NCBI GenBank assembly: GCA_937902925.1
Contig: CALFNN010000080.1
Coordinates: 1 to 64,000, forward strand
DNA from: an uncultured Opitutaceae bacterium
GTDB lineage: Bacteria > Verrucomicrobiota > Verrucomicrobiia > Opitutales > Opitutaceae
Direction: 5' to 3'
Length of the DNA stretch: 64,000 bases
In this document: positions 5,161 to 54,884 of the stretch, in pieces
Layout: each line of letters starts with the position of its first letter
How positions within the stretch are numbered: the stretch's first letter is position 1
Notes under the pieces: model-generated
Seen by the model: only the letters and a program-made list of their open reading frames with translations
Databases searched by the model: none
What the model was told of the DNA's origin: nothing
Position numbers and translations under genes: made by a program

Positions 5161-5790
5161 ATGAATCCATCGTTTGACGCCGCGTTTTGGAACGACCGCT
5201 ACGGCGGCGACGGTTATGTCTACGGCACATCGCCCAACGAATTTCTCGCGTCGGTCGCGGCGGATGTTCCCGCCGGTCCCGTGCTCTGCCTCGCCGAGGG
5301 CGAGGGGCGTAACGCGACTTTTCTCGCCGGACGCGGTCATGCGGTGACCGCCGTCGACCAGTCGTCGGCCGGCCTCGCGAAGGCCGGCGCGCTCGCGCGG
5401 GGGCGCGGCGTGCCGCTCGCGACCGTCGTGGCCGACCTCGCGGATTTTGCGATCGCGCCGCAGGCGTGGTCGGGCGTCGTGGCGATCTTCATGCACCTGC
5501 CGCCGGCACTGCGTCGGGCCGTGCTCGCGCGCGCGGCGGCCGGGCTCCGGCCGGGCGGCGTGTTCGTGATGGAGGCCTATACGCCCGCGCAACCCGCCTA
5601 CGGCACTGGCGGCCCGCGCGACGTCACCCTTTTACCGACACTGGCGGAGCTCCAGGCGGAACTCGGCGACTTGGAGTGGCTGGTCGCCCGCGAACTCGTG
5701 CGTGACGTGCGGGAAGGCGGCGGTCACACCGGCAACTCCGCCGTCGTGCAGGTGCTCGCCCGTCGGCCGACGAGCGTCGACCGGCGCTAA
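5161..5790 (+). CDS. class I SAM-dependent methyltransferase (TehB/TPMT-like)
   Basis: Motif I VLCLAEGEGRNATFLAGRGHAVTAVDQS and post-I acidic residue; typical ~200 aa small-molecule methyltransferase. Confidence 0.8.
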   Translation: MNPSFDAAFWNDRYGGDGYVYGTSPNEFLASVAADVPAGPVLCLAEGEGRNATFLAGRGHAVTAVDQSSAGLAKAGALARGRGVPLATVVADLADFAIAPQAWSGVVAIFMHLPPALRRAVLARAAAGLRPGGVFVMEAYTPAQPAYGTGGPRDVTLLPTLAELQAELGDLEWLVARELVRDVREGGGHTGNSAVVQVLARRPTSVDRR

Positions 5791-7734: not shown

Positions 7735-7852
7735 CGGTTGCGAGCGACCGCCCGGCTCCGCCAAGGTCGGCCCGAGGGTGGCGTTGCGCTGCGAATATCT
7801 AAAGGATCGGATTTCCGACTGGTGGGGCTCGTTGTTCGTCACGAGGCAGCCG

Positions 7853-8160
7853 TCACTGCTCTTTCGCGCCGCCGTCGTAGCGGATGGCGTGGCCGACGGC
7901 GAGCAGGGAGTTGTTTAGGAAGGCGAAGCCTTCCGGGTGAGAGGTGATGGGTGACGGGTGATGGGCTTCATCCTGACCTTTGGCCTCAGACCCCTGACCT
8001 ATGGCCTGGCGGATGAACGCATCCGCCAAATACCAATCATATTTGTCGGGCTTCGTGGTGCAGACGATCACTTCGTCGCCGGGTCTGAGGAGGGCATCGA
8101 CAAAAGCCTTGGCGTCGCGGCGGGCGGCGGTGGTTGCGGGCCGGCAGTCTTACGGGCCGA
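7853..8160 (-). pseudogene. 3'-terminal remnant (duplicate) of the DUF1016_N-thermonuclease gene
   Basis: ~300 bp is ~90% identical to 8912-9217. The 72-aa ORF MIVCTTKPDKYDWYLADAFIRQAIGQGSEAKGQDEAHHPSPITSHPEGFAFLNN... mirrors the C-terminus of the full gene at 8912-9973. No N-terminal part is present. Confidence 0.65.
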
Positions 8161-8834: not shown

Positions 8835-8911
8835 GTGCGACACAGTGTAGCACATCGCGGTCATGTCAATCGGGGAGGCGTCGGGCGACAGGGTCGGCGG
8901 AAGCGTGGCCT

Positions 8912-9973
8912 TCACTCCTCCTTCGTGCCGCCGTCGTAGCGGATGGCGTGGCCGGCGGAGAGGAGGGCGTTGTTGAGGAAGGCGAAGCCTTCCGGGTGAG
9001 AGGTGATGGGTGAAGGGTGATCGGCTTCATCCTGACCTTTGGCTTCAGACCCCTGACCCATGGCCTGGCGGATGAACACATCCGCCAAATAACGATCGTA
9101 TTTGTCGGGCTTCGTGGTGCTGATGATCACGTCGTCGCCGACGCGGAGGAGATTTTCCACGAAAGCCTTGGCGGCGCGGCCGGCGGCGGTCGAAATCTCC
9201 GGACAGTCGATCCCGCGCAGGCGCAGTTTCAACTGGTGCGTGAGGCCCGGCGCGACCGCGAGCGCGACGGCTAGCGTGTCGCCGTCGACGATTTTGCGGA
9301 TGGTGGCGACATAGGTGAAGAGCTGGTCCTTCGTCGCATGTTCCACCTTGCGGACGCCGTCCTCGTTCAACCGCACGATGTCCGTGGTCGTGAGCTTGGA
9401 GGCGGGGCCGAGCGAGCGGTAGAATTTGAACCCGAGATCGACCTCGGGGCCGTCGCCCAGATCGACGATCGGGTGCAGCCCCGGCGTGCCGAAGCGGGGC
9501 GTGAGGAGTCCGACGGGTGGGGCCGGCGCGGCGTCGTCCGAGGCGAGCGCGATGGCGTTGTAGGAGCGCACGCGCGTTTCGAGATCGGACTTGGTCCAGT
9601 TTTTCCGGATGGCCTCGGCTTCGAGCGTTTTTCGCTGCGCGGGGTCGGCGATCTGGATCAGCAATTGGTAGTGCGACCAGATCAATTTGGCATCGCGATG
9701 CCAAATCGGGTAGCACCGGTGGAACTGGGCGCACTGGCGCAGCGAGCGTTCGCTGATGTGGATGTCCGCAGTGAGTTTGGTGTAAACCCGGGCGCCGTAA
9801 TCGGCGCGGTCGCGAAACAGCAGCACGTGTTCGTTGATGAGCCGGCCGGTCTCGTGATAGGTGCCGAGCCACGCGCGATCGATTTCCCCGCGTCCCTGGA
9901 CGACGACGGCGATCACCGCATCGCGCAATTGCGCGTAGGTCTTCGGCGTCGGGGTGAGCGCGCGCGCGGGCAT
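8912..9973 (-). CDS. DUF1016_N (YhcG N-terminal) domain fused to staphylococcal-nuclease-like (SNase/thermonuclease) domain
   Basis: N-terminal half: YHETGRLINEHVLL...ADYGARVYTKLTADIHISERSLRQCAQFHRCYPIW...IWSHYQLLIQIADPAQRKTLEAEAIRKNWTKSDLETRV (YhcG_N pattern). C-terminal half: VDGDTLAVALAV...LRLRGIDCPE...AAKAFVENLL..VIISTTKPDKYDRYLADVFI (SNase fold). The first 211 codons of the ORF track entry are Arg-rich run-on; start set at MPARAL. Confidence 0.7.
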   Translation of the reverse strand: MPARALTPTPKTYAQLRDAVIAVVVQGRGEIDRAWLGTYHETGRLINEHVLLFRDRADYGARVYTKLTADIHISERSLRQCAQFHRCYPIWHRDAKLIWSHYQLLIQIADPAQRKTLEAEAIRKNWTKSDLETRVRSYNAIALASDDAAPAPPVGLLTPRFGTPGLHPIVDLGDGPEVDLGFKFYRSLGPASKLTTTDIVRLNEDGVRKVEHATKDQLFTYVATIRKIVDGDTLAVALAVAPGLTHQLKLRLRGIDCPEISTAAGRAAKAFVENLLRVGDDVIISTTKPDKYDRYLADVFIRQAMGQGSEAKGQDEADHPSPITSHPEGFAFLNNALLSAGHAIRYDGGTKEE

Positions 9974-10054
9974 GGTGGAGGCGGGACGGCGGTTTTTTGG
10001 CCGATCCACGTCGGAAAGTCGCGCGGAAACTGGACGACGCGGACGGGATCGAAG

Positions 10055-10150
10055 AGCACCAAGCACCAGTGAAGCACCAACGTTCAAAACTCCGATGACG
10101 GGAGCTTGAAGTTTCTCTGGGGTCTGGACGTTGATGCTTGGAGTTTTCGG
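10055..10150. repeat. intergenic palindromic repeat element (CCAAGCWCC-unit family), copy A
   Basis: caccaagcaccagtgaagcaccaa...ttgaagtttctctggggtctggacgttgatgcttggag, shared with 11247-11352 and inverted at 36468-36600. Confidence 0.7.
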
Positions 10151-10194
10151 CACGCCGCGCTGCCCCGCCAGACCTCGACGGCGGCGCCGACGCC

Positions 10195-11118
10195 CTATTT
10201 CTTCGGTGCCTGCGCGTCGTAGAATTCCTTGATCAGCCCCATGATTTGCGGGAGTTGCGCCTCGGCCTTCACCGCGTTCAACTGGGACTCCGACAGGAAC
10301 GACTGGGACTGCGCGATCACCTGGTTCCAGTCGGTCGTCTGCGGGGTCACCCTGCCGCCGCTCTGGTAGGTGCTGTTGGCGTTGGCGATCACCTTCAGGA
10401 GTTGATTCGATTGGTCGGGGGTGAATGGCCGGAAAACGGACATCGACGAGATGTCGGTCACGGTCCGCTCCAAGGGTTGCAGGCGGCGGAAATCCTCGAA
10501 GCTCTTGAACCCCTCGTCGCCGAGGATCTGTTTGATCTCGTCGTCCTTCAGGTTCGGGTCGTCCGGATGAACGCTGTTTGGGGTGAGCGCCAGGCTGTTG
10601 ATCCATTTCTCGGCGGTGGCGGTTTCCATGGCGTCGATTTGATCGGCCGTGAGCACGCCCGACCGGATGAGAGAGGAGAAATTCCGCTCAATCTGGGCCC
10701 GGCCGAGGTTCATCAGCATCGGCTTCACCTGGGCACCGTAGGCGGCGACGAAAGCCTGGCCGTCCGCCAGCGATTGCTTCCGCGCGGCTTCGGCGGCGGC
10801 TTTGCCGGGAGCCGGCATCGCGGGCGGACGGGGCCCCGGCGACACGGCGGCGGTTTTTGCCGCCTGCACCGCCGCCTCCTGTTCCTTGAGCTGGGCCTGC
10901 AATTGCGTCTGCCCCTGCTCCGCGGCGCGGGCCCGCCCCGCCATTTCCTGCAACTGTGCGAGGTCGGTCTGATGGACACGCTCCGCGGCGGTCACGGAAT
11001 CCTCCGCCTGCCTCGCCTGGGTAAACTCGTAGACGGCGATCCCAACGGCCAGGACCGTCAGAATTCCAAACAGCTTTAGTAGCGGCGAGGCAGCCCGTGG
11101 GCGATCGACAGGGTTCAT
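10195..11118 (-). CDS. hypothetical membrane-anchored coiled-coil protein
   Basis: N-terminal TM helix (LLKLFGILTVLAVGIAVYEF) then Q/A-rich coiled coil; no family recognised. Confidence 0.5.
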   Translation of the reverse strand: MNPVDRPRAASPLLKLFGILTVLAVGIAVYEFTQARQAEDSVTAAERVHQTDLAQLQEMAGRARAAEQGQTQLQAQLKEQEAAVQAAKTAAVSPGPRPPAMPAPGKAAAEAARKQSLADGQAFVAAYGAQVKPMLMNLGRAQIERNFSSLIRSGVLTADQIDAMETATAEKWINSLALTPNSVHPDDPNLKDDEIKQILGDEGFKSFEDFRRLQPLERTVTDISSMSVFRPFTPDQSNQLLKVIANANSTYQSGGRVTPQTTDWNQVIAQSQSFLSESQLNAVKAEAQLPQIMGLIKEFYDAQAPKK

Positions 11119-11246
11119 GGGGAAAGAAGCAACCGGGGTGACTAAGAGGACGGCGCGATACTCGACGCCGGCGTGACGAGTGACAAGTGACTTGTGACGA
11201 GTCGCCCGGGCATGCGCGGCGATACGGCGAGGCCGCGAAGGCGCCG

Positions 11247-11352
11247 AACACCAAGCTCCAACCTCCAGTGAAGCACCAAACTCCGAAGCCCCGGTAGTGA
11301 GGAATTGAGGTTTGAAGTTTCTCTGGAGCTTGGACGTTGGTGCTTGGAGCTT
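11247..11352. repeat. intergenic palindromic repeat element (CCAAGCWCC-unit family), copy B
   Basis: caccaagctccaacctccagtgaagcaccaaactccga...ttgaagtttctctggagcttggacgttggtgcttggagcttt. Confidence 0.7.
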
Positions 11353-13239
11353 TCAGCGCTCGGCGCCGATGCGCCAGATCTCGAAGGCGGCATCGCCGAA
11401 GCCTTTTAGCTTGGCGCTTTCACGCGCGCTCGTGAGGCCGGACGTGGGTGCGGCGAGGTGGGCGGCGACTTCGCCGTCGGCGTGGACCGCAGCGGAGAGA
11501 ATCAGGTCGGCGCCGGTGCACAGGCCGCAAAGGCGCGCAGTGGTGTTGACCGTCGTGCCGAAGTAATCGAGCCGCTCGTTCTGGTTGATCGCGAGGCACG
11601 GGCCGCAATGAATGCCGGCTTTCAACGCGAGCGGCTTGAGCGAGGAGGGCGGAACCGTCACGCCCTCGGGGAGCGAGAAATCCTGCGGGTGGGCGAGATG
11701 CTGTTGCGCGTGCAGCATCGCGCGGAGCGCGGCCACCGGTCGGGGGAACACCGCCATGATCGCGTCGCCCATCGTCTTTACGATGCAGCCGTTCTCGGCG
11801 GCGACGGCGGCTTTCAGGATTTCGAAATGCGTGAGCACGCGGCCGAAGGCGGGCGCGTCGCCGATGTCCTGGTAGAGTTGCGTGGAATTCTTCAGGTCGG
11901 TGAACACGACCGTCATCGAGCCCACGCTGATTTGCTCGCCGTGGCGCAGCACCTCGCGCGAGAAGAGGTCGCGGAAAAGCTGGAGCGACGTCACCTCGGC
12001 GGCGGTCGTGGATTGATCGCTCCAGGCGACGCGCTCGATGATGGCGAGGTGTTCGTGGCCGTCGGCGTTGACCAGCGTGAGCTGGCCGTCGGGCGCGACG
12101 AGATGCTCGGTCAACGACGAGGCGCCGAGGTCGATGCGCGCAGCGGCGGGCGCACCCGGCGCGGTGCGAAACGTGTGTTGCTCCGGCAGCCGCGGCGTGC
12201 GGACGCGGTAGCGGCCCGGGTCCAGCGCGAGCGGCAACACGCGGCGTTCGCCGGGCCGGAGCGACTGCTGGGCAACGACGTGCGGCGTGACCTGCGGGCC
12301 GCCGACGCAATAGTCCGCGCGCGTGACCGCGCGGATGGCGGGGTTCGGGATGAAGGTGAGCTCGACCGACTGGTCGAAGTTGGCGGTGAAATCGACGTTG
12401 CAGGTGTCGCAGTGCGCCGACGCCTTGACGGCCGAGAGCGAGGACTCGCTGGCCTTGGCGCCACGGCAGTGCGGGCAGACGAGATCCCAACTGAAGTCCA
12501 GGGCGCCGGCGCGCGTGGCGTGGAGGAAAAGCAGCAGCGTGTTTTGCCGGCTCGCGCGCCATTCGTCGGCGAGCGCGTAGGGGCGGATGCGGGCGGCGGC
12601 GAGATCGTCGGCGGTGGTGAGGAATTCCGTGAACCGGCCGACGAGCGGCGGGGGCTGGCTGGCGTCGTCGACCAGCGCGCGGCCGATCCGGGCGAGGCGC
12701 TCGGTGCCGCCGGAGGCGAGCCGGGGCCTTTGCGCGAGCTGCGAGGCCCGCAGGCCACGCTGGGCAAATTCGTCATAGCGGTGGAAGACGCGCCGGGTGG
12801 TGGCGCGCGCCCGCCGGCCGATGGAGAACGGCAGCGCGAGCCGGCCGAGGAAATTCGAGGGCGTCAGCCGCATGTCGTAGACGAGAGTGGTGCCGCCGCC
12901 AGCGCGCGGCGTGAGCTCGCAGAACATCAGCATCTTCGCCACGGGGCCGCTGTAGTAGGTGCGCTCGACACCGTAGCGCGTCGGCGCGAGCCACTCGAAG
13001 GCGAGTTCATCCCACTCGATGGTGACGCCCAGCACCGCGGCGCGGAGCCGGCGGGCGTTGGTGACCGGCGCGATTTTTGCCGCGGCGGCGCCGGGGCCCG
13101 ACGGCGTGACGACGGTGACCGGCGGGTAGCCGCAATCGCGGTTGAAGCGATCGGTATTGGAGACCAGCGGCCAGAGCGCCTCGGGCGGCGAAACGAGATC
13201 CCAGGTCCAGCGGAAATGTTGCTCGGAAAAGGCGGGCAT
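11353..13239 (-). CDS. adenylate/guanylate cyclase domain protein (class III CHD at C-terminus)
   Basis: C-terminal block MTVVFTDLKNSTQLYQDIGD...IVKTMGDAIMAVF...AGIHCGPCLAI...DYFGTTVNTTARL is a class III nucleotidyl cyclase; N-terminal region carries a Cys cluster (CPHCRG...CDTCN). Confidence 0.85.
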   Translation of the reverse strand: MPAFSEQHFRWTWDLVSPPEALWPLVSNTDRFNRDCGYPPVTVVTPSGPGAAAAKIAPVTNARRLRAAVLGVTIEWDELAFEWLAPTRYGVERTYYSGPVAKMLMFCELTPRAGGGTTLVYDMRLTPSNFLGRLALPFSIGRRARATTRRVFHRYDEFAQRGLRASQLAQRPRLASGGTERLARIGRALVDDASQPPPLVGRFTEFLTTADDLAAARIRPYALADEWRASRQNTLLLFLHATRAGALDFSWDLVCPHCRGAKASESSLSAVKASAHCDTCNVDFTANFDQSVELTFIPNPAIRAVTRADYCVGGPQVTPHVVAQQSLRPGERRVLPLALDPGRYRVRTPRLPEQHTFRTAPGAPAAARIDLGASSLTEHLVAPDGQLTLVNADGHEHLAIIERVAWSDQSTTAAEVTSLQLFRDLFSREVLRHGEQISVGSMTVVFTDLKNSTQLYQDIGDAPAFGRVLTHFEILKAAVAAENGCIVKTMGDAIMAVFPRPVAALRAMLHAQQHLAHPQDFSLPEGVTVPPSSLKPLALKAGIHCGPCLAINQNERLDYFGTTVNTTARLCGLCTGADLILSAAVHADGEVAAHLAAPTSGLTSARESAKLKGFGDAAFEIWRIGAER

Positions 13240-15112: not shown

Positions 15113-15200
15113 GAAGTAGTGAGTAGCGGGGAGCGGGTAGCGAGTAGAGCAGAAACTTTCGCGGGGGCATGCTCGCTACTCGCTACCCGCTACTCGCTGC
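15113..15200. repeat. GTAGCGA-unit palindromic element between lptB stop and hprK start
   Basis: gtagtgagtagcggggagcgggtagcgagtagagc ... gctcgctactcgctacccgctactcgctgc gives a ~30-bp imperfect stem. Confidence 0.6.
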
Positions 15201-17546: not shown

Positions 17547-17618
17547 AATCGTTCTCGTTCTTCGTTCTCTTACTCGTTCTCGATTGTAGAACCGCGGGAA
17601 AAAGAGAACGAGAACGAT
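17547..17618. repeat. perfect 15-bp inverted repeat (aatcgttctcgttct / agaacgagaacgatt) with TCGTTCT tandem units, between E1 stop and kdsC start
   Basis: Arms at 17547-17561 and 17604-17618; loop contains further tcgttct units. Confidence 0.65.
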
Positions 17619-19652
17619 TTAGCCCATCCAAACGGCGATTTGTTCGATGACCTTTTCCTTCGTCGGCCGGAAGGCGCCCTCGAGCTCGGGGGCGAAGGGC
17701 ACCGGGAGGTCGAGAGCGGCGATCCGGAGCGGGGCGGCTTTCAGCGTGGCAAAATGTTTCTCGGTCAGCCGCGCGACAAGCTCGGCGCCGAAGCCGTGGG
17801 TGCGGCGGCCCTCGTGCAATACGATCAGCCGACCGGTGCGCGCGAGCGAAGTCTCGATCGAGTCGAGTCGCAGCGGCGAGAGTGCGCGCAGGTCGAAGAG
17901 GTCGAACGTTTTTTCGTATTCGGCGGCGAAGTAATCGCAGGCCTCTCCGGCGAGGAGGGTCATTTCGCCATAGGTCACCATCGTCGCGTGGTTGCCGGAG
18001 CGGAGTTGCTTCGGCTGCCAGATCTCGCGGTAGTTCGGGTCCCACCCGACGGGCGCACGACCGCGGCGATAGAGGGCCTTGTGCTCGAAGAGGAGGACGG
18101 GGTTGTTGTCCTCGTAAGCGGCGAGGAGGGCGTTGAAGGCGTCCTGCGGCGTGCTGGGGTAGAGCGCCTTGAAGCCGGGCATCGAAAGGAACGTGGACTC
18201 GAGCTCCTGCGAATGAAACGAGCCGAACGTCAGCCCGCCGCCGCACGGCAGCCGGAGCACGAGCGGGCAGGTGGCGCCGGAGCGGAAGTGCATCGTGGCG
18301 GCGTTGAGCGTGAGCTGGGTGAACGCCTCCGTCGAAAAATCGGCGAACTGGAATTCCTCGATGGGCCGGTGGCCGTTGAGCGCCAGGCCGATCGCGTAGC
18401 CGGTGCAGGCGCTTTCGGCGAGCGGGGTGTTGAAGACGCGCGGGCGGCCGAAGTCGGCGAGGAGGCCCTCGGTGACCTTGAACGCGCCGCCGTAGGTCGC
18501 GATGTCCTGACCGAGCACGAGCGACTCGGGGCGCTCGGCAAGGATTTTGCGCAGGCCGTGGTTGAGCGCCTGCGCGAGCGTGAGCGATTCGGGCGTGGCG
18601 GGTTCGGGTTTCCACGGGAGCGGTGGCGAGGGCGGGGCGAAGAGACCGGCCTCCATGCCGGCGGGATTGGGGCGCGGCGTGGGGAGGGAAACGTTGACGC
18701 AGGCTTCGAGAAAAGCGTCCAGCTCGGCGTCGAGCGCGTCGAGACGGGCGACGCCGAGCGAAGCGGCGAGGGTGGCGCGGAATTTCGGCAGCGGATCGCG
18801 GGCGAAAAATCCCTCGCTCTCGCCGGGCTTCAGATAATCGCAGGTATCGTAGGCGGCGTGGCCGCGCAGCCGCAGCGTCCGCGCCTCGACGAGGACGGGA
18901 CGAGAAGTCGCGCGGACCTTCGCGATGGCGGCGGCGAGCGTGTGCGCCGTGCCGACGATGTCGGTGGCGTCGACGGCGAAGCCCTCCATCTGGTAGCCGG
19001 CGGCGCGGCGCCAGAGCTCCGTGCCGGCGGCGAACTGTTCGCTGACGGGCGTCGAGTAGGCGTAGGCGTTGTTCTCGATCACGAAGATGACGGGCAGCGA
19101 GAGCAGCGAGGCGAGGTTGAGCGACTCGTGCGTGTCGCCGGTGCTCGAGGCGCCATCGCCGAAAAACGTGAAGCCGACCGCGGGGCGGCCGAGGCGGCGC
19201 TGGGAATCGGTCGCGCCGGCGACGTTGGAGAGCATCGTGCCGAGATGGCTGATCATCGGCAGCGACCGGTGCGAGGGATCGCCGTGGTGGATGTTGCCCT
19301 CTCGGGCGTGGGTCGGGCTGCCGGCGTTGGCGAAATACTGGTTGAGGTGGTCGCAGAGGTGACCGCTCCAGATGAGGTGGCCGCCGAGGCCGCGGTGCGT
19401 GAACGAGACGACGTCGGTCGCCTTGTCGGCGAGGAGCGCGAGCGGGATGACGAGGCCCTCGTTGCCCTGGCCGCCGGTGACGGTGCCGCGAATGAGGCCC
19501 TGGCGAAACAGGTCGAGGATGCGGTTGTCCGCGGTGCGGGCGAGGTGCATCCACGCGTAGAGGCGCAGGAGGGCGGCGGGGGAATTGTTCTCGAGTTCCG
19601 CGGGGCGCAGGTCGCGCTCCGCCAGGACGGCGGGAGGAGTCGGAAAGGCCAT
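17619..19652 (-). CDS. fused 2-oxoacid dehydrogenase E1 component alpha/beta (TPP-dependent)
   Basis: N-terminal half has the E1-alpha TPP motif (GDGASSTGDTHESLNLASLLSLPVIFVIENN); C-terminal half is a transketolase-like E1-beta (VLGQDIATYGGAFKVTEGLLADFG...). Confidence 0.85.
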   Translation of the reverse strand: MAFPTPPAVLAERDLRPAELENNSPAALLRLYAWMHLARTADNRILDLFRQGLIRGTVTGGQGNEGLVIPLALLADKATDVVSFTHRGLGGHLIWSGHLCDHLNQYFANAGSPTHAREGNIHHGDPSHRSLPMISHLGTMLSNVAGATDSQRRLGRPAVGFTFFGDGASSTGDTHESLNLASLLSLPVIFVIENNAYAYSTPVSEQFAAGTELWRRAAGYQMEGFAVDATDIVGTAHTLAAAIAKVRATSRPVLVEARTLRLRGHAAYDTCDYLKPGESEGFFARDPLPKFRATLAASLGVARLDALDAELDAFLEACVNVSLPTPRPNPAGMEAGLFAPPSPPLPWKPEPATPESLTLAQALNHGLRKILAERPESLVLGQDIATYGGAFKVTEGLLADFGRPRVFNTPLAESACTGYAIGLALNGHRPIEEFQFADFSTEAFTQLTLNAATMHFRSGATCPLVLRLPCGGGLTFGSFHSQELESTFLSMPGFKALYPSTPQDAFNALLAAYEDNNPVLLFEHKALYRRGRAPVGWDPNYREIWQPKQLRSGNHATMVTYGEMTLLAGEACDYFAAEYEKTFDLFDLRALSPLRLDSIETSLARTGRLIVLHEGRRTHGFGAELVARLTEKHFATLKAAPLRIAALDLPVPFAPELEGAFRPTKEKVIEQIAVWMG

Positions 19653-35414: not shown

Positions 35415-36467
35415 CTATTGCTGCTGCTGTTGCTGCTGCTGTTCCTCGATCGAGGACTCCGCGGGGTAAAACATGGTCGTCTGGACGACTTCGTCGCCGA
35501 TGGTGTCGAGGGTGGCTTGGATATCCATGAGGAATTCGTGCAGGCCTTGGTCCAGCACATCGGTGATGGCAAGCGATTGCAGGTCGGCGAGGAGGCGGCG
35601 CGAGGCGCGGCCGGCGGCGGTGCGGGGGCGGGCGCCGGTCTCGCCGAGGATGCGGCGGAGAAACTCGTCGACCTGCGCGACGCAGAAATGCAGCGAGCGG
35701 GGGAAGGAGTCGGAAAAAATGAGAAACTCGCCGACCTTCCACGGAAGGATTTCGCGGACGTAGAAACGGCGGTAGGCCTCGAGCGCGCTGGCGGAGCGGA
35801 GCACGGCCTGCCATTGCGCGGTGTCGACCGCGCCGCCGACGTCGGTCGCGCTGGGAAGCAGGATGTGGTATTTGACGTCGAGGATGCGGGTGGTCTTGTC
35901 GGCGCGCTCGAGGTATTTGCCGAACTCGATGAATTCCCAGCCCTCGCTGCGCGAATAGGTCGAGGTCGTGAGGCCCTGGAAGAGATGGGCGGCGCGCTTG
36001 ACGTTGTTGAAGAACTCGCCGGCGCCCGTCGCCCAGATCTCCTCGGAGCTGCGGTCGTGGAGGTAGAGGTAGAGCTCGTTGATCGTCTCCCACATCTCGG
36101 CGGAGATCTGGTCGCGGATCATGCGGGCGTTCTCGCGCGCGGCGTTGACGCAGCCGCGGATGGAGTTCGGATTACGCAGGTCGAACGCGAAATACTCGGT
36201 GACGTTGTGGCTGTCGGCGATGTCGTAGTGCTTCGCGAATAATTCCTCGTCGCCCGAGCTGAGCAGGATCGAGCCCCAGTGCTCCTTGATGGTGGTGTCG
36301 GTGAAGCCCTGGAAATCGAGCAGGAGCTGGAGGTTGACGTCGAGGAGGCGCGAGAGGTTTTCGGCGCGCTCGATGTAACGGCTCATCCAATAGAGCGAGT
36401 GCGCGACGCGGGACAGCATCACGGTCGCCTGCGGGCGGAGGAGGGGGGCGTTGGCGGGGGTGGGCAT
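35415..36467 (-). CDS. alpha-E domain protein (DUF403), with C-terminal poly-Gln tail
   Basis: MLSRVAHSLYWMSRYIERAENLSRLLDV is the canonical alpha-E N-terminus. Ends EEQQQQQQQQ, encoded by (CAG/CAA)8. Confidence 0.8.
   Translation of the reverse strand: MPTPANAPLLRPQATVMLSRVAHSLYWMSRYIERAENLSRLLDVNLQLLLDFQGFTDTTIKEHWGSILLSSGDEELFAKHYDIADSHNVTEYFAFDLRNPNSIRGCVNAARENARMIRDQISAEMWETINELYLYLHDRSSEEIWATGAGEFFNNVKRAAHLFQGLTTSTYSRSEGWEFIEFGKYLERADKTTRILDVKYHILLPSATDVGGAVDTAQWQAVLRSASALEAYRRFYVREILPWKVGEFLIFSDSFPRSLHFCVAQVDEFLRRILGETGARPRTAAGRASRRLLADLQSLAITDVLDQGLHEFLMDIQATLDTIGDEVVQTTMFYPAESSIEEQQQQQQQQ
35418..35446. repeat. (CAG/CAA)8 trinucleotide repeat encoding a poly-Q tail
   Basis: ttgctgctgctgttgctgctgctg on plus strand, in frame at the 3' end of the alpha-E gene. 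Confidence 0.8.
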
Positions 36468-36600
36468 GCTTTTCAGAAGCTCCAGACTTCAAGCGCCAAG
36501 CTCCAGAGAAACCTCGAAAATCGAAGTCGGGAAAATCAGGAGCTGGGAGGTTGGGAGCTTCATGGGAGCTTGGAGATTGGTGCCGGGAGCTTCCGGCTCG
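36468..36600. repeat. intergenic palindromic repeat element (CCAAGCWCC-unit family), copy C (inverted)
   Basis: caagcgccaagctccagagaaacctcgaaa is the reverse complement of tttgaagtttctctggagcttgg in copies A/B; also ggagcttggagattggtgccgggagctt. Confidence 0.65.
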
Positions 36601-36606
36601 TCCGGC

Positions 36607-38067
36607 TCATTCGTCGCCCTGGAGCACCCAGGTGTCCTTCGAGCCGCCGCCCTGGGAGGAGTTGACGACGAGCGAACCCTTGCGGAGCGCGACGCGCGTG
36701 AGGCCGCCGGGTGTGACGGTGATCTTTTCGCCGTAGAGGATGTAGGGGCGCAGGTCGATGTGGCGGCCCTCGAGGTGGCCGTCGCACCAGGTCGGCGAAC
36801 GCGAGAGATTGATGGGATCCTGCGCGATGAAGTTGCGGGGATTGGCGGCGACCTGGGCACGGAAGGCCTCGCACTCCGCCTTGGTCGACGCGGGGCCGAT
36901 CAGCATGCCGTAGCCGCCGGCCTCGTTGGCGGATTTCACGACGAGCTTCTCGATGTTCTCCAGGATGTATTTCCGCTGGAGCGGCTCGGAGGCGAGATAC
37001 GTGTTCACGTTCGCGAGGATCGGCTCCTGGTCGAGGTAGTATTTGATGAGCTGGGGGACGTAGGCGTAGATGACCTTGTCGTCGGCGACGCCGGTGCCGA
37101 TGGAATTGGCGAGCGCGACATGGCCGGAGCGGTAGGCGTTCACGAGGCCGGGCACGCCGAGCATCGAGTCGGGCCGGAAGACGGACGGGTCGAGAAAATC
37201 GTCGTCGATGCGCCGGTAGATGACATCGACCCGCACGAGCCCGGCGGTCGTGCGCATGAACACGCGGTCGTCGCGGACGACGAGATCGCGGCCCTCGACG
37301 ATGGGGATGCCCATCTGGCGCGCGAGGAAGCTGTGCTCGAAATAGGCGCTGTTGAAGACGCCGGGCGTGAGGAGGACGACGCTGGGCTTGTCGCTGCGGG
37401 CCGGGGCGAGGTGGAGAAGCGCCTTGAGGAGATCGTCCGCGTAGGTCTCGACCGGGCGGACGCCGTAGCTCTGAAACAAATTCGGAAAGGCGCGGCGCAT
37501 CGCGCTGCGATTTTCCACCATGTAACTCGCGCCGGACGGACAGCGGAGGTTGTCCTCGAGCACGAGGTAGTTGCCGCGGGCGTCGCGAATCAGGTCGGTG
37601 CCGCAGATGTGAACGTAGATGCCGCGCGGCACCTTGCAGTTCATGAACTCGCGGCGGAAATGCTTCGCGCCGAGGATGAGCGCGGGCGGCACGAGTTTGT
37701 CCTTGAGGACCTTCTGGCCGTGATAGACGTCGTCGAGAAACAGGTTGAGCGCCGTGATGCGCTGCACGAGGCCGGCCTCGATGCGGGACCACTCGGCGTT
37801 CGGGATGACGCGGGGGACGAGATCGAACGGGAAGATGCGCTCGGTGCCCTGCGAATCGCTGTAGACCGTGAAGGTGACGCCGCGCCGCAGAAACGCGAGG
37901 TCGACGGCGCCGCGCCGCTGCTCGAACTCGTCCCGGGCCAGCGTGCCCAGCCGCTCCGCGAGGCGGCGGTAGTGGGGGCGCACGTCGGTGGACGACGTGA
38001 ACATCTCGTCGAAATAGTCGGCGGTTTCGTAGCTGGGATTGAGGATCGACAAGGAGGGTTTTGACAC
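36607..38067 (-). CDS. circularly permuted type-2 ATP-grasp protein
   Basis: Conserved family signature throughout ([11 protein letters not shown]...[34 protein letters not shown]...). GTG start (cac 38065-38067). Confidence 0.85.
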
Positions 38068-45017: not shown

Positions 45018-45443
45018 ATGGCCGGCGGCGGAAAGATTCCGACGGATGGCGGCGGCGGCCTTGGGCAGAATCCGTTTGGCGCGCTGAGCGCCGCGGGGTT
45101 GCCGGTCGCTCCGAAGGTGGTTTTGGAGCAGGCGGCGGCGAAGCTGGCCGGGAACCCGGGGCGGCCGGGGACAGTCGCGACCGCCGCTCAGACGAAGAAT
45201 CGTGGACGCGTGGATATCCGGCGCGAGACGGGAAACCGCGGCGGAAAGACGGTCACGGTCGTCGACGGATTCGTGGGGATCGGGCTGCCGGAAAAGGAGC
45301 AGCTCGCGAAGAAAATGCGCGCGGCGTGCGGCTGTGGCGGAACGGTGAAGGACGGCGCGATCGAGATCCAAGGCGACCAGCGGGAAAAAATCGCGGCGAT
45401 TTTGAGCGCGGCGGGATTCCGGCCGGTATTCGCGGGCGGATGA
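45018..45443 (+). CDS. yciH: translation initiation factor SUI1-family protein (YciH-like)
   Basis: RRETGNRGGKTVTVVDGF...CGCGGTVKDGAIEIQGDQREKIAAIL matches SUI1/YciH. GGGAGGAG SD-like sequence 7 nt upstream. Confidence 0.8.
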   Translation: MAGGGKIPTDGGGGLGQNPFGALSAAGLPVAPKVVLEQAAAKLAGNPGRPGTVATAAQTKNRGRVDIRRETGNRGGKTVTVVDGFVGIGLPEKEQLAKKMRAACGCGGTVKDGAIEIQGDQREKIAAILSAAGFRPVFAGG

Positions 45444-45542
45444 AGAAATGGGTCTCGCGAAGGACGCGAAGGAAACGAAGGGAAGCAAAGGGGCAGGGAG
45501 AAGGACCGGGGGCTGTCTCCGACGCGCCTTTCGCGAAGCGAT

Positions 45543-48477: not shown

Positions 48478-48486
48478 TTCGGAAGA

Positions 48487-48590
48487 GTGTCTCGCGAAGG
48501 ATTGGAAGGGAGCGAAGGATAAAACCAAAGGAAGGAAAAGGTTGGAGCTGGGATGGATTGGGCCTTCGCTTCCTTCGAATCCTTCGCGGG
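48487..48590. repeat. CGAAGG-unit imperfect hairpin element between uca stop and atzF start
   Basis: Arms cgcgaaggattggaagggagcgaagg and ccttcgcttccttcgaatccttcgcg, ~26 bp, separated by a ~30-nt loop. Confidence 0.65.
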
Positions 48591-48604
48591 AAATTTGGAT
48601 TGGA

Positions 48605-51600
48605 TCAGCTTTCCAGGACGATGAGGGTTTCGCCGGCGTTGACGGGGCGGCCTTCGGCGCAGCGGATTTCGCGGACTTTGCCTGCGCGGCTGGCGACGAC
48701 GGTGATTTCCATCTTCATCGATTCGAGGATCACGAGCGCGTCACCCTCGTTGACGGCGGCGCCGGCGGCGACGGCGATTTTCCAGACGTTGCCGGGGATA
48801 TGGGCGATCACGGCGGTGCAGCCGGCGGGAATCGCCTGCTCGTCGACGGCGGCGGCCGAATCGGATTCGGAGGAGAAGTTGAGCTGGCCGGAAATCTCCC
48901 AGCGATGGCGCTCGGCCTCGAAGGCGGCCTGCTGGCGGGATTTGGCGGCGGCGATCGTAGCGGCGTTGGCGGCGAGAAATTTTTCGTAGTCGCGGAGACG
49001 GAAGGTCGTTTGCTCGATTTTCAGCTGCGCGCGACCGTGGGTAAAATCTTCACGGAACTTCGTGAGCTCGGCGTTCGTGACCGGATAGAAACGAATCTGG
49101 TCGAAGAAGCGGAGGAGCCACGGGTGGCCGTCGGTGAACTCGGCGGTTTGCTTGTAGCGGTTCCACATCTGGCAGGTGCGGCCGATGAACTGGTAGCCAC
49201 CGGGGCCCTCCATGCCGTAGACGCAGAGGTAGGCGCCGCCGATGCCGACGGCGTTTTCCGGCGTCCAGGTGCGGGCAGGATTGTATTTCGTGGTGACGAG
49301 ACGGTGGCGCGGATCGACCGGGGTGGCGACGGGGGCGCCGAGGTAAACGTCGCCGAGCGCGAGGACGAGGTAGCTTGCCTCGAAGGCGATGCGGTGGACG
49401 TCGGCGACGGAATCGAGGCCGTTGATGCGGCGGATGAACTCGATGTTGCTGGGGCACCACGGCGCGTCCTTGCGGACGATCTGCATGTATTTGCGGATCG
49501 CGAGAAGGGTGGACTCGTCCTCCCAGGAGAGCGGCAGGTGAACGATGCGCGAGGGCACCTCGATGTCGTCGACGGCGGGGAGTTCGGACTCGGCGCGGAG
49601 CAGAATCTCCATCAGGCGTTCGAGCGGAAGCAGGCGGGCGTCGAAATGAATTTGGAGCGAGCGGATGCCGGGCGTGAGGTCGACGATGCCGGGGAGGTGG
49701 TGGCGTTCGAGCCAGGTTTGGAGCGCGTGGACGCGCATCCGGAGCGCGATGTCGAGGACGAGCGGACCGTATTCGACGAGGAGGTAGGCGTCGCCGGCGC
49801 GGCGGTAGACGACCGCGGGGGCGGCGGGGCGGGCGGGGATGGCGTGGAGGATGGCGGGTTCGGAGGGCGAGGAATGACGAATGACGGATGACGAATGACG
49901 AATGGCGGAGAGGCGGAGGGATTCGATTTCGGCGTCCTGGGCGGTCGCGATGATCCGGGCTTGTTCGGCGGTGAGGGCACGGAAGCGGACCTTGTCGCCG
50001 GGCTTGAGCTGGCCGATTTTCCAGAGTTCGCCGCTGGCGATCGTCGCGGGACAGACGAAGCCGCCGCAACTCGGGCCGTCGGGGCCGAGGATGATCGGCA
50101 TGTCGCCGGTGAAATCGATCGCGCCGATCGCGTAGGCGTTGTCGTGGATGTTCGAAGGGTGCAGGCCGGCCTCGCCGCCGTCGCGGCGCGCCCACTGCGG
50201 TTTCGGGCCGATGAGGCGGACGCCGGTCCGGGCGGAGTTGTAGTGGACTTCGTAGATGGCGCTGAAGAGAGCGGCGATGTCGTCGTTGGTGAAAAAATCT
50301 GGCGCGCCGTGCGGGCCGTAGAGGACGCCGATATCCCAGTCGCGCGTGAGCGGCGAGTGGATCGAGGCGGGTGCGCGGAGGAGCGGAGCGGCGTCGGTCA
50401 CGCCGGCGGGCGTGGCGCGATTGACGCGAAGGACATCGCCGGTGCGGAGGGCGCGGCCGGAGTGACCGCCGAAGAGGCCGAGCGTGAAGGTGGATTTGCT
50501 GCCGAGGTAATCCGGGACGTCGAGGCCGTGGCGGATGGCGAGGTAGGCGCGGAGGCCGGGGCCGTCGACGGAAGCGAGTTGGAGGGTCTGGCCGCGTTTG
50601 ATGCGAAAGGCGCGATGAAAGGCGATGGGTTTGCCGTCGAGCGTCGCGGGCATGTGCGCGCCGGTGAGCGCGACGACGGCGGCCGTGTTGAAGCGGAGCC
50701 TGGGGCCGTTGACGGTGAGTTCGAGGCCGGCGGCGGTGTCGGGGTTGCCAACGAGACGGTTGGCGAGGCGGAACGAGCGGCCATCCATCGGGCCGGAGGG
50801 TGGAACACCGACGTCCCAATAGCCGAGGCGGCCGGGATAATCCTGCACGGTGGTCTGGGTGCCGCCCTCGAGGACGTCGATCGTCGAGGCGGCGTAGGGC
50901 AGCGTGGCGAGGTATTTGGTGGTGACGCCGCCGGCGCGAAACCCGGTGGAGGCGGCGATCTGGCGAAGGTAGTCGAGATTGGTTTCGAGGCCGTGGAGGC
51001 GGGTGTCGGCGAGGGCGGCGTCGAGGCGGGCGAGGGCATCGGCGCGGTCGGAACCGCGGACGATGATTTTCGCGAGGAGCGGATCGTAGAACGCGGAGAC
51101 CTCGGTGCCGCGCTCGATCCACGTCTCGATGCGGGCGGACGTGGCGAAATGGACGTCGGTGAGGGTGCCGGCGGCAGGTTGAAAGTTTTTGCCGGGATCC
51201 TCGGCGTAGACGCGGACCTGGATCGAGGCGCCGGTGGAGGCGGGCGTGAAGTTGGAAAGATCAAGTTCGCCGGCGGCGGCGCGAAGCATCCATTCGACAA
51301 GATCGATGCCGGTGACTTCCTCGGTGACGCCGTGCTCGACCTGGAGGCGCGTGTTGACTTCGAGAAAATAGAATTCGCCGGTGGCGTTGTCGTAGACGAA
51401 TTCGACGGTGCCGGCGTTCTGGTAGCCGGCGGCGGCGCCGAGGCGGGCGGCGCAATCGAGGAGGCGCGTGCGCTGCGCGGGCGACAGGCCGGGAGCGGGC
51501 GTCTCCTCGATGACCTTCTGGTTGCGGCGCTGGACGGAGCAGTCGCGTTCGCCGACGGCGACGACGTGGCCGCGGCCGTCGCCGAAAATCTGGACCTCGA

Positions 51601-52222
51601 TGTGGCGGGCGTGCTCGACGAATTTCTCGAGGAAGATGCCGCCCTCCTTGAAATTGTTTTTCGCGAGGCGGCCGACGGCGGCGAAGGCGGCGGAGAGCTC
51701 GGCGGGCTGGCGGATGAGCGACATGCCGATGCCGCCGCCGCCGGCGGTGGACTTGAGCATGACGGGGTAGCCGATGCGCGCGGCCTCGGCGCGGGCGTGA
51801 GCCTCGTCGCGGAGAAGTTCGGAGCCGGGGAGGAGGGGGACGTTTTGTTTTTGCGCGATGGCGCGGGCGGCGTGCTTGAGCCCGAACATGCGCATCTGGT
51901 CGCCAGTGGGGCCGATGAAGACGAGGCCGGCGGCGGCGCAGGCGTCGGCGAAGGCGGGATTTTCGGAGAGGAAACCGTAGCCGGGATGGATGGCTTGAGC
52001 GCCGGTGGCTTTGGCGGCGGCGATGATCTTGTCGGCGTCGAGGTAAGACTGAGCGGCAGGAGCGGGGCCGAGGTGGACGGATTCGTCGGCTTGCTGGACG
52101 TGGAGGGAGTGCCGGTCGGCGTCGGAGTAAACGGCGACGGACGCGATGCCCATGTGCCGCAAGGTGCGAATCACACGGCAGGCGATGGCGCCGCGGTTGG
52201 CGATGAGGACTTTGGAAAACAT
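48605..52222 (-). CDS. uca: urea carboxylase (biotin carboxylase + carboxyltransferase/AHS domains + biotinyl domain)
   Basis: N-terminal biotin carboxylase (MFSKVLIANRGAIACRVIRT), central allophanate-hydrolase-subunit-like domains, C-terminal biotin attachment motif EAMKM variant ESMKMEI. Confidence 0.9.
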   Translation of the reverse strand: MFSKVLIANRGAIACRVIRTLRHMGIASVAVYSDADRHSLHVQQADESVHLGPAPAAQSYLDADKIIAAAKATGAQAIHPGYGFLSENPAFADACAAAGLVFIGPTGDQMRMFGLKHAARAIAQKQNVPLLPGSELLRDEAHARAEAARIGYPVMLKSTAGGGGIGMSLIRQPAELSAAFAAVGRLAKNNFKEGGIFLEKFVEHARHIEVQIFGDGRGHVVAVGERDCSVQRRNQKVIEETPAPGLSPAQRTRLLDCAARLGAAAGYQNAGTVEFVYDNATGEFYFLEVNTRLQVEHGVTEEVTGIDLVEWMLRAAAGELDLSNFTPASTGASIQVRVYAEDPGKNFQPAAGTLTDVHFATSARIETWIERGTEVSAFYDPLLAKIIVRGSDRADALARLDAALADTRLHGLETNLDYLRQIAASTGFRAGGVTTKYLATLPYAASTIDVLEGGTQTTVQDYPGRLGYWDVGVPPSGPMDGRSFRLANRLVGNPDTAAGLELTVNGPRLRFNTAAVVALTGAHMPATLDGKPIAFHRAFRIKRGQTLQLASVDGPGLRAYLAIRHGLDVPDYLGSKSTFTLGLFGGHSGRALRTGDVLRVNRATPAGVTDAAPLLRAPASIHSPLTRDWDIGVLYGPHGAPDFFTNDDIAALFSAIYEVHYNSARTGVRLIGPKPQWARRDGGEAGLHPSNIHDNAYAIGAIDFTGDMPIILGPDGPSCGGFVCPATIASGELWKIGQLKPGDKVRFRALTAEQARIIATAQDAEIESLRLSAIRHSSSVIRHSSPSEPAILHAIPARPAAPAVVYRRAGDAYLLVEYGPLVLDIALRMRVHALQTWLERHHLPGIVDLTPGIRSLQIHFDARLLPLERLMEILLRAESELPAVDDIEVPSRIVHLPLSWEDESTLLAIRKYMQIVRKDAPWCPSNIEFIRRINGLDSVADVHRIAFEASYLVLALGDVYLGAPVATPVDPRHRLVTTKYNPARTWTPENAVGIGGAYLCVYGMEGPGGYQFIGRTCQMWNRYKQTAEFTDGHPWLLRFFDQIRFYPVTNAELTKFREDFTHGRAQLKIEQTTFRLRDYEKFLAANAATIAAAKSRQQAAFEAERHRWEISGQLNFSSESDSAAAVDEQAIPAGCTAVIAHIPGNVWKIAVAAGAAVNEGDALVILESMKMEITVVASRAGKVREIRCAEGRPVNAGETLIVLES

Positions 52223-52228
52223 CGGAAA

Positions 52229-52332
52229 GGTGTCTCGCGAAGGATTCGAAGGGGACGAAGGTTCGAAAAAAGGAGAGCCGGAATATCTCTACTGGATTGG
52301 ACGTTCGCTTCCTTCGTATCCCTCGCGAGACA
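52229..52332. repeat. CGAAGG-unit imperfect hairpin element immediately upstream of uca start
   Basis: Arms gtgtctcgcgaaggattcgaaggggacgaagg and cgttcgcttccttcgtatccctcgcgagacat; same family as 48487-48590; single arms at 52743-52780, 54805-54837, 45450-45500. Confidence 0.65.
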
Positions 52333-52340
52333 TGGGATTA

Positions 52341-52742
52341 TCAGGCGAAGAAATCTTTTCCCTCGGCTCCGTTCGTGACGCGCGTGATGCCGTTTTTGAG
52401 ATGAACTTCGTTGAAGTTGATGAGGAACCCGAGCTGGAGCGGGATCAGGCGAAGGTAATTCCAAGTCGTCTTCTTGAAGAGGTCGGTGACTTGAGCCACG
52501 GACTTCAGCTCGACCAAGACGAGATTGTCGATGATGAGGTCGGCGCGAAAGCCGACTTCCTCCAGCAGTTCACCATCGTAAAAAACAGGAATCGGTTTCT
52601 GTCGTTCGATTTGGTGACCAAGCTTTCGGAGTTCCTTCGCCATCGCGGTTTCGCAAGCGGACTCCAGCAGACCCGGCCCGAGTTTCGTGTGGGCTTTGAA
52701 CGCGGCATCTAACGCGGCTTTTCCAACGATCTCTTGGTTCAT
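52341..52742 (-). CDS. GxxExxY protein (PD-(D/E)XK-like small protein)
   Basis: LGPGLLESACETAMAKELRKLGH...FRADLIIDNLVLVELKSV...LQLGFLINFN is the GxxExxY family pattern. Only the C-terminal 133 aa of track ORF 52341-53351 are genic. Confidence 0.8.
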   Translation of the reverse strand: MNQEIVGKAALDAAFKAHTKLGPGLLESACETAMAKELRKLGHQIERQKPIPVFYDGELLEEVGFRADLIIDNLVLVELKSVAQVTDLFKKTTWNYLRLIPLQLGFLINFNEVHLKNGITRVTNGAEGKDFFA

Positions 52743-52780
52743 GATTCCTTCGTTTCCTTCGGACCCTTCGCGAGACACCC

Positions 52781-53416
52781 TCAGGGATTCCAGATCAGGA
52801 CCTCGATCGGCGTCGGGTTGTAGGCGTTGCAGGGGTTGTTGAGCTGGGGGCAGTTCGAGATCACGCAGACGACGTCGCGCTCGGCGCGGAGTTCGACGTA
52901 GTAGCCCGGGGCGCTGACGCCGTCGGCGAAGGTGAGGCGGCCGTCGGGCGTCACAGGGACGTTCATGAAGAAATTGATGTTCGGGGCGACGTCGCGCTTG
53001 CCGAGATCGGGGCGCCAGGCGTGGACGCCGCAAATGAAGCTGTCGCGACAGGCGTGCATGAACTCCTTGTCGTGGGCGTAGCGCATCGTGTTGCTCTCGC
53101 GGGAGCAGGCGCCGCCGAGCGTGTCGTGTCGGCCGCAGGTGTCGGCGACGATGGTAAGAAGCGGGTCGCCGAGCTGGGAGTAGAGCGTTGTCCCGGTGCT
53201 GAGATAGAGCGCGGCCTGACGCTGGACGGTGTCGCTCGCGCTGTAGCGGTTGAACGGATCGTGCGCGTCGTAGAAGAGAGTGTCCGCGGCCTGGTTGCCC
53301 TCGAGGTCGACGATGCGGAGGATCTGGCCGCGTTTGATTTCGTGCGACCACGGATCGCCGGCGGGGATGACATGGCGATAAAGAGCCACGGTTGGATCGA
53401 GCGTGCTGGTGGTCAT
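52781..53416 (-). CDS. urea carboxylase-associated protein (DUF1989 family), copy 2
   Basis: 211 aa ([40 protein letters not shown]...) with the cupin-like DUF1989 pattern. Paired with the adjacent paralog next to urea carboxylase, as in the known uca cluster. Confidence 0.75.
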
Positions 53417-54359: not shown

Positions 54360-54797
54360 CTACAGGAGCGGCGGCATCGCGGTGGCGGTGAGGTTCAGGC
54401 GGGCGTGCTTCACGCCCTTGCAGGCGGCGAGCGTGTCGGCAAGGCTGCGCAGATCGCGGGCGGGACCCTGCACGAGGAGCACCTCGAGATAGTGATGGTG
54501 CTCGAGATGGACGTGGGTCGAGGTGACGACCATGAGATAATTCTGGTGCTGGATGTCGGCGAGCTTCCGCTGGAGATTTCGTTTCCGATAGTCGTAAACG
54601 AGGCTGATCGTGCCGGCCATCGACTTGGTGCCGAGCTCCTGCGCGTGCTCGATCAATTGCTCGCGGGCCATCTCGGCGATGGCGTGGGAGCGGTTGGGGA
54701 GCTGACGACGGGTGACCATGTCGTCGAGCTCGTCGAGGAGGTCGGCGGGGAGCGAGACGCTGAAGCGGGCGAGCTGGGGGCGGCGGGCGGCGGTCAT
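54360..54797 (-). CDS. nikR: nickel-responsive transcriptional regulator NikR
   Basis: Ribbon-helix-helix N-terminus ([38 protein letters not shown]) plus C-terminal ACT-like domain with the His/Cys nickel site ([21 protein letters not shown]...[10 protein letters not shown]). Confidence 0.8.
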
Positions 54798-54884
54798 GGG
54801 CGGGGTGTCTCGCGAAGGGAGCGAAGGGCGGAGGAGGCAGACTTCATGGCCGGGAGGGTTTGCGCAAGACGTGGCGGTCGCGGG

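Follow-up and report, generated by a model that had tools for sequence, protein, structure and literature searches.

Introduction

The IVS of Coxiella burnetii is a selfish element lodged in helix 45 of the 23S rRNA. [quoted passage not shown] The S23p family consists of four-helix bundles assembled as pentameric rings, a structure from Xanthomonas being cited as homopentameric, and the origin and mobility of the 23S rRNA IVS have been unclear since its identification more than 25 years ago (PMC4990558). We describe here a family of inverted-repeat elements, three copies of which lie in the window (the whole stretch of 64 kb of DNA that was analysed). The family resembles the S23p-type IVS (Coxiella burnetii, Leptospira; PMC4990558) in its stem-forming terminal inverted repeats with tandem-heptamer arms and, in long members only (loci L017, L021, L130 and L131), in a TIGR02436/PF05635 ORF within the loop. 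Both kinds of element are regarded as selfish or mobile, and both are without a known mobility enzyme. The elements described here differ in that they occupy mRNA spacers at stop codons, not helix 25 or 45 of the 23S rRNA, in that most copies are devoid of an ORF and measure 115-135 bp, and in that a fixed 52-nt arm design has been kept across orders.

The literature on repeats in Verrucomicrobia yields only the GTAG REPs of Opitutus terrae, 20-40 bp elements of another kind. The preliminary description of this locus had likened its repeats to REP/BIME sequences. Indeed, as in the REP/REPIN-RAYT systems (PMC3733652), we find dispersed extragenic inverted pairs with genome-specific variants, as well as a single-copy gene flanked by repeats, which is here the four-helix-bundle gene at preA/mmsA. 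Membership of the described GTAG/CGTC kinds is not supported. The GTAG/CGTC tag and the short palindromic unit are absent, the arms are 52 nt long, end in AGCTT and do not form palindromes by themselves, and the gene that they flank in the loci examined encodes a four-helix bundle instead of an HUH/Y1 transposase.

Two further groups of repeats invite comparison. The ERIC/IRU sequences of enterobacteria are imperfect palindromes of ~127 bp in transcribed intergenic regions, and are like the present elements in size, in the imperfect hairpin, in their occurrence in both orientations, in the choice of transcribed spacers and in having no transposase of their own. To our knowledge, they are unrelated in sequence, have no heptad periodicity and no gene-bearing form, and are confined to enterobacteria and vibrios. 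The STRR heptanucleotide repeats of heterocystous cyanobacteria are also intergenic tandem heptamers, but as simple direct arrays they have no core, no fixed length and no inverted partner.

Results

Three copies in the window

Two look-alike intergenic elements had been reported previously, here named copies A and B. Both are present at the places given for them, and they align with 82% mean column identity over ~130 columns. Repeat finding and a profile search revealed a third, copy C (36477-36592), in the orientation opposite to that of A and B, and no copies beyond these three in the 64-kb window. Minus-strand genes flank all three copies. The arms and their neighbours, in order of position for each group, are:

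10053..10091, plus strand: C-type (CCAA) arm of copy A, degenerate and truncated; core CCAGTGAAGC at 10066-10075; read from the sequence
10095..10146, plus strand: T-type (TTGG) arm of copy A; core GTTTCTCTGG at 10111-10120; nhmmer 34.7 bits, E = 8e-09
11239..11290, plus strand: C-type arm of copy B; core CCAGTGAAGC at 11265-11274; nhmmer match on the minus strand, 12.7 bits
11301..11352, plus strand: T-type arm of copy B; core GTTTCTCTGG at 11317-11326; nhmmer 48.8 bits, E = 3e-13
36477..36528, minus strand: T-type arm of copy C, reading GTTTCTCTGG... on the minus strand; nhmmer 39.3 bits
36541..36592, minus strand: C-type arm of copy C, decayed (CCAA to CCCA/CCCG) relative to its orthologue in L221; nhmmer 14.9 bits
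8912..9973, minus strand: gene downstream of copy A, DUF1016_N / SNase-like nuclease
10195..11118, minus strand: gene between B and A, 307 aa (gene Y in the comparison of orthologues)
11353..13239, minus strand: gene upstream of copy B, DUF5939 and guanylate cyclase domain
35415..36467, minus strand: alpha-E domain gene (PF04168) downstream of copy C
36607..38067, minus strand: CP_ATPgrasp-type gene upstream of copy C, an assignment made by synteny with L221 and L224

Copy A is present as had been described, but its left arm, truncated and degenerate, can be recognised only from ~10053; a single intact CCAA heptad is left in it, and the arm profile missed it. The 9-mer CCAAGCWCC, taken at first as the unit of construction, is enriched in the window (7 occurrences against 1.17 expected, with none of 100 shuffles reaching 7). 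The building block itself, however, is not this 9-mer but a 7-nt heptad (NNNCCAA / TTGGNNN), repeated round a 10-nt core.

The elements had also been thought to fill the entire gaps between genes, which they do not. The terminal AGCTT of copy B directly adjoins the stop codon (TCA, 11353-11355; stop-codon distance -1) of the cyclase gene on the minus strand, but the copy falls ~120 nt short of the next start, over an interval that includes an unrelated GTGACGA heptamer array. Copy A is separated by 48 nt, counted from its T-type arm, from the preceding stop (that of the 307-aa gene) and by 79 nt from the next start. The C-type arm of copy C starts 14 nt past the stop of the CP_ATPgrasp gene. 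The 307-aa product of the gene between B and A had no Pfam match. Gene-less arrays of several other inverted-heptamer families are present in the window as well, and no rRNA was found in it.

In prediction, all three copies fold as long imperfect hairpins. For copy B, whose C-type arm is paired with the right arm, the fold reaches z = -5.1 on the plus strand and -4.2 on the minus strand; the values for copies A and C are weaker (-1.7 to -3.7). The loops between the arms of A, B and C span only ~3-12 nt and are without an ORF. The mobile-repeat reading had been made to depend on further copies and on a stable fold: further copies exist, and B folds stably.

A family with a fixed arm design

A genome collection was scanned with the 17-nt core pattern GTTTCTCTGGRGYYTGG, which fixes the core sequence of one arm, and 120 loci were retrieved. 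The full architecture of the element is seen in 66 of them, nearly all titled Verrucomicrobiota, and about half of the 120 are chance matches in unrelated phyla, without the architecture. The titles of the family-bearing loci are Opitutus, Oleiharenicola, Opitutaceae, Chthoniobacterales, Udaeobacter, Pedosphaera, Limisphaerales and Verrucomicrobiales, and the orders are Opitutales, Chthoniobacterales, Pedosphaerales/Limisphaerales and Verrucomicrobiales. Copies A, B and C belong to an inverted-repeat family that spans at least four orders of Verrucomicrobiota.

The arm is a 52-nt array composed of two TTGR heptads, the core GYTTCTCTGG, three NNNTTGG heptads and a terminal AGCTT. A core-anchored alignment of 68 arms has zero gaps; TTGG recurs with a 7-nt period, and the arm stops abruptly behind AGCTT. 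As a consensus it reads GAGYTTGRWGYTTGRW-GTTTCTCTGG-AGCTTGG-RGNTTGG-NRYTTGG-AGCTT, and the sequence beyond is random. Conservation is 90-95% at the TTGG/CCAA positions, with free variation in the 3-nt spacers. The partner arm has this same 52-nt design in reverse complement; in partner arms that the search pattern did not fix, GCTTCTCTGG is commoner in the core than GTTTCTCTGG. The distance from core to core is mostly 41-67 nt, and gene-less elements are 115-135 bp long (~120 bases). Solo arms also occur. Many that look solo belong to inverted pairs whose loops span 200-500 nt, and nested repeats are found inside some loops. Few arms, mostly solo, were found in a scan of viral contigs.

The loci of other genomes contain about one additional element per 48 kb, and the window three per 64 kb. 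Extrapolation from this local density, which is not a count, suggests on the order of a hundred copies or more per genome. At the gathering threshold, Rfam 15 gave no match to the element in the window or in 16 loci, and at E up to 10 it gave only weak matches to miRNA precursors, at chance level. No paper in the open-access literature was found with the element sequence strings; an earlier description elsewhere is possible.

Filled and empty sites

The host operon of copy C is CP_ATPgrasp - alpha-E - transglutaminase. The CP_ATPgrasp/alpha-E junction is filled in the window and in L221 (alpha-E 93% identical), with spacers of 139 and 129 nt, respectively. The same junction is empty in L222/L223 (alpha-E 89%) and in L224/L225 (86%), where it reads TGA-CT-ATG and TAA-C-ATG. 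Copy C is an insertion polymorphism. The inserted segment is made up of 5-14 nt, the element and a tail of 8-9 nt (YTGAAAR), an arrangement that places the terminal GGAG of copy C 12 nt upstream of the ATG of the alpha-E gene in the junction alignment. In the C-type arm of the window copy, CCAA has changed to CCCA/CCCG relative to the L221 copy; given this decay, the arm is not being maintained at that site. In gene-Y orthologues of 82%, 66% and 61% identity, A and B are missing and other repeat families are found there.

Arms are more alike at their variable positions within a genome than between genomes (0.522 vs 0.458; none of 500 permutations reaches this). Examples of such dialects are TGTTTGG in an Amazon MAG and GGATGTTGGCGCTTGG in Oleiharenicola. 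The comparison shows that arms are homogenised within genomes. The earlier suggestion of a mobile miniature element is supported by these data, namely the many copies, both orientations, genome-specific dialects and a filled versus an empty orthologous site for copy C. As for target-site duplications, the lengths of flanking direct repeats match those of the shuffled control, and there is none at the filled/empty junction of copy C. Of the two marks of a MITE of a DDE transposon, terminal inverted repeats are present and a target-site duplication is absent; the family is no MITE of the kind that has such duplications.

Placement at gene ends

The orientation of genes was assigned by a crude ORF/GC3 rule, which correctly recovered the minus-strand calls on both flanks of A, B and C. 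Among the 42 elements with both flanks called, 28 lie between co-directional genes, 10 between convergent and 4 between divergent genes, and the co-directional contexts divide into 15 vs 13 by the orientation of the element. Inferred 3' ends of genes lie -3 to +21 nt from the outer end of the element in ~37 of 50 cases, on both of its sides, and are at most 3 nt from it in 21 of the 50 (e.g. TGAagctcc, TAAagctcc). All copies examined are situated between protein-coding genes, including co-functional cistrons (preA-mmsA-amidohydrolase; CP_ATPgrasp-alpha-E-transglutaminase). The family prefers stop-start junctions, and an element usually begins 0-20 nt past a stop codon.

The preliminary description had allowed for a terminator. 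The positions after AGCTT are random, with no U-tract, the terminator scan did not flag the elements, and copies are located between the cistrons of conserved operons, which together speak against this role. A canonical intrinsic terminator, with a G+C-rich stem followed by a U-tract, was discarded because the U-tract is missing and the copies are intercistronic.

Conservation of arms and pairing

Pairing between the arms is seen in 90-95% of elements at the CCAA:TTGG and core positions, and Watson-Crick pairing of the 3-nt spacers in only ~40-50%. The stems are imperfect, with ~75% Watson-Crick pairs. Arm-to-arm covariation is absent: complementarity at 24 variable positions was 0.466 for arms of the same element vs 0.451 for random pairing (z = 1.2). 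RNAalifold on 26 elements returned 15 invariant pairs, 0 compensatory ones and a covariation term of -0.05. An excess of G.U over A.C on the sense strand was absent in co-directional contexts (71 vs 85). Because both the covariation and the G.U bias are absent, RNA pairing is not demonstrably selected. The conserved feature is the arm rather than the pairing, and the stem clearly can form.

These observations bear on two other explanations of the family. According to one, the elements are a signal at the 3' ends of genes that is selected by the host, either a bidirectional terminator or an mRNA-stabilising hairpin, REP-like as at the gene ends of E. coli, and the conservation throughout the phylum reflects function at each site. 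The copies are tight against stop codons on both sides, they are under-represented between divergent genes (4 of 42), and copy B has a fold that is stable on either strand, all of which would be expected of such a signal. We nonetheless give this explanation a slim chance. Besides the missing U-tract and the silence of the terminator scan, copies separate co-functional cistrons (as in the preA and CP_ATPgrasp operons), the element is missing from the CP_ATPgrasp/alpha-E junction of close relatives, copies A and C have weak arms that are in decay at their sites, and neither the covariation nor the G.U bias is there.

According to the other, the arm would be a sequence-specific binding array, whose five TTGG/TTGR heptads might be contacted by a multimeric protein on DNA or on single-stranded RNA, the hairpin being incidental. 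An array of this kind would explain the heptads and would be compatible with mobility. It agrees with the 90-95% conservation of TTGG/CCAA next to free 3-nt spacers that do not covary between arms, with the persistence of solo arms, with the five chains in the 2RLD entry, and with the S23p of Xanthomonas, cited as a homopentameric ring (PMC4990558). The heptad spacing is broken by the core, however, and recent copying of master elements could equally explain the conservation. A binding array is an unlikely account of the family.

Association with a four-helix-bundle gene

The loops of L017 and L021 contain a gene of ~124 aa that matches TIGR02436 (E = 5e-17) and PF05635 23S_rRNA_IVP (S23p), and orthologous genes in L130 and L131 are likewise flanked by arms. 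The gene-flanking arms score ~34-49 bits, and only ~7-16 bits in the divergent dialect of L131; in L021 and L131 their dialect is that of nearby short copies. The four-helix-bundle gene is the only ORF found between arms, in all four gene-bearing loci recovered. The data show that arms of the family are physically associated with this gene. The four loci represent a single site in the pyrimidine-catabolism operon (preA/mmsA), in the order DHO_dh - (arm, gene, arm) - Aldedh - (element) - amidohydrolase. Since the gene-bearing copies of the CCAA type are all at preA/mmsA, the gene could instead have entered a pre-existing hairpin. No four-helix-bundle gene was found in the 64-kb window or in the other loci searched.

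A second four-helix-bundle gene in L130, at a second operon junction, is bracketed by other arms, (GTGACNN)n, whose last heptamer provides the ATG of the downstream gene. A metagenome scan with a single query, the protein of this second lineage, gave 80 loci, 72 of them testable. The gene is bracketed by inverted AGTGRCN-type arrays of 3-5 heptamers in 64 of the 72, far above shuffles. The heptamers include AGTGACG, AGTGGCG, AGTGGCT and AGTGGAC, and their type tracks the identity tier of the protein. The 32 loci of the second lineage with both flanks represent at least 15 different genomic contexts, and in this lineage the arms and the gene therefore move as one unit.

Among solved structures, the closest relative of the protein encoded in the loop is 2RLD, an entry with five chains. 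Proteins of TIGR02436/PF05635 are abundant, with more than 4,800 clusters from one search. We know of no mobility enzyme among the TIGR02436 proteins.

Discussion

In A, B and C we probably see miniature, gene-less forms of a mobile inverted-repeat element that resembles an IVS and resides in mRNA spacers. Such an element would land, in either orientation, in the tiny spacer right behind a stop codon, often between the cistrons of an operon. As it is quasi-palindromic, any incoming transcript meets a C-rich arm first; the RNA would thus be read as the C-rich arm (AAGCUCCAAG...) followed by the U/G-rich arm, and the GGAGCUU end of the second arm, which is Shine-Dalgarno-like, could leave the downstream gene open to translation. 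With the TIGR02436 gene (23S_rRNA_IVP / S23p) in the loop of its long members, the family has the architecture of the S23p-type 23S rRNA IVS. The short copies would derive from gene-bearing ones. By analogy with IVS stems, the RNA hairpin may be cut by RNase III, and the four-helix-bundle protein is a candidate for the family's own factor, one that would recognise the heptads.

A different source of mobility would make the elements REPINs or REPs that depend on a RAYT (Y1 tyrosine transposase) for their movement, or else a MITE of a DDE insertion sequence with its transposase elsewhere in the genome. Inverted pairs of a repeat unit, in many extragenic copies with dialects within genomes, speak for such a source, and many REPs are known in O. 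terrae. We nevertheless hold this source to be very unlikely, for the GTAG/CGTC tag is wanting, the 52-nt arm is not self-complementary, target-site duplications are at chance level, and the one ORF between arms, in all four gene-bearing loci recovered, is the four-helix-bundle gene.

The IVS-like reading admits a broader version, which we put forward tentatively and as rather doubtful. The 23S rRNA IVS might be only that part of a very large mobile class, as yet undescribed, which resides in rRNA; in this class, a TIGR02436 gene would be bracketed by lineage-specific inverted heptamer arrays, and the elements would colonise stop-start junctions and hairpin loops and spawn hundreds of gene-less miniatures per genome. 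The ring-forming protein, which is related to the DGR accessory protein Avd, would then be the cognate factor, reading the heptads (five TTGG/TTGR units per arm) to move or maintain the elements.

The data tie the TIGR02436/PF05635 gene to inverted heptamer arrays outside rRNA, and they reveal gene-less elements spread through Verrucomicrobiota genomes together with a clean filled/empty site. With this tie and this site, the function of TIGR02436 and the origin and mobility of the IVS become testable. There is a practical side as well. Gene callers routinely translate arms as KLQAPSSKLQRSSK... extensions, and arms split the cistrons of conserved operons; annotation is therefore affected, and possibly the expression of operons too. 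Among the 120 closest protein clusters of the four-helix-bundle gene, the called N-terminus is a translated C-type arm (KLQAPSSKLQRSSK) in 85.

Arms and coding sequence

The C-type (CCAA) arm of these inverted-repeat elements stays open in frame, and open reading frames continue across it uninterrupted. A 564-aa frame running across copy A (8912-10606, minus strand) is spurious, and public four-helix-bundle protein entries (P0012-P0131) carry false N-terminal extensions (MKLQAPSSKLQRSSKSQAP...). Both the 564-aa frame and the N-terminal extensions are annotation artefacts. At L130, a locus outside the window, the amidohydrolase gene downstream of the element takes its ATG and first codons from the last heptamer of the arm (ATGTCAC, within 5500-5560), and its serine codon is accordingly unlike that of L017 and L131.

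A few IMG/VR contigs, viral or prophage (L212-L217, L220), also contain genuine arms, which score 27-47 bits and are mostly solo. One viral contig has several sites with same-strand arms (L216, n = 3; L217, n = 1), and some of these coincide in part with reading-frame 3' ends.

Other repeats in the window

The window holds heptamer arrays at further sites, together with an array of 9-nt period.

11173-11202: solo array, GTGACGA x4.3 (gtgacgagtgacaagtgacttgtgacgag), in the stretch from copy B to the gene Y start
15115-15198: short-loop hairpin pairing (AGTAGCG)n with (CTCGCTA)n, its reverse complement, between two genes
17549-17630: hairpin, (TCGTTCT)n ... (AGAACGA)n
49872-49904: (GAATGAC) x4.7 array, 92% identity
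54187-54228: array of 9-nt period (AATGGGACC), x3.9

The heptamer of the GTGACGA array is of the same type as that of the arms around the second four-helix-bundle gene, at L130 and many metagenome loci. The hairpin at 15115-15198 is another heptamer-array element without a gene.

A second dispersed set, the CGAAGG/CCTTCG family, follows the same logic as copies A, B and C. Its arms are inverted, with a unit period of 8-9, and adjoin the core GTCTCGCGA; its members lie near inferred gene starts and ends.

48479-48594 and 52222-52333: copies
45442-45481, 52738-52781 and 54797-54836: partial copies

GACGAAG arrays were found within the loops of the elements at locus L096.

A PhdYeFM antitoxin/PIN toxin pair is flanked by direct repeats of 283 nt. 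The repeated segment is a duplication of the DUF1016 nuclease gene at its 3' end, and a (GGGTGAT)n array is present in both copies.

7849-8131 and 8908-9190: 283-nt direct repeat, 89% identity

Companion repeats in other genomes

Further widespread repeats share genomes with the arm family.

L022 and L094: repeats located beside half elements
L128: 245-400 and 1500-1539
L125: 3700-3740 and 5185-5225

The repeats of this set comprise agagatgtttcgctYcgctcaacatgaca, gtcatcctgagcgaagcgaaggatctc, ctctgtgctctccgtgttctctgtgttgaaaa and CTAC-tagged units (ccgctacgacggcggc), the last being similar to the GTAG-type REPs described from O. terrae.
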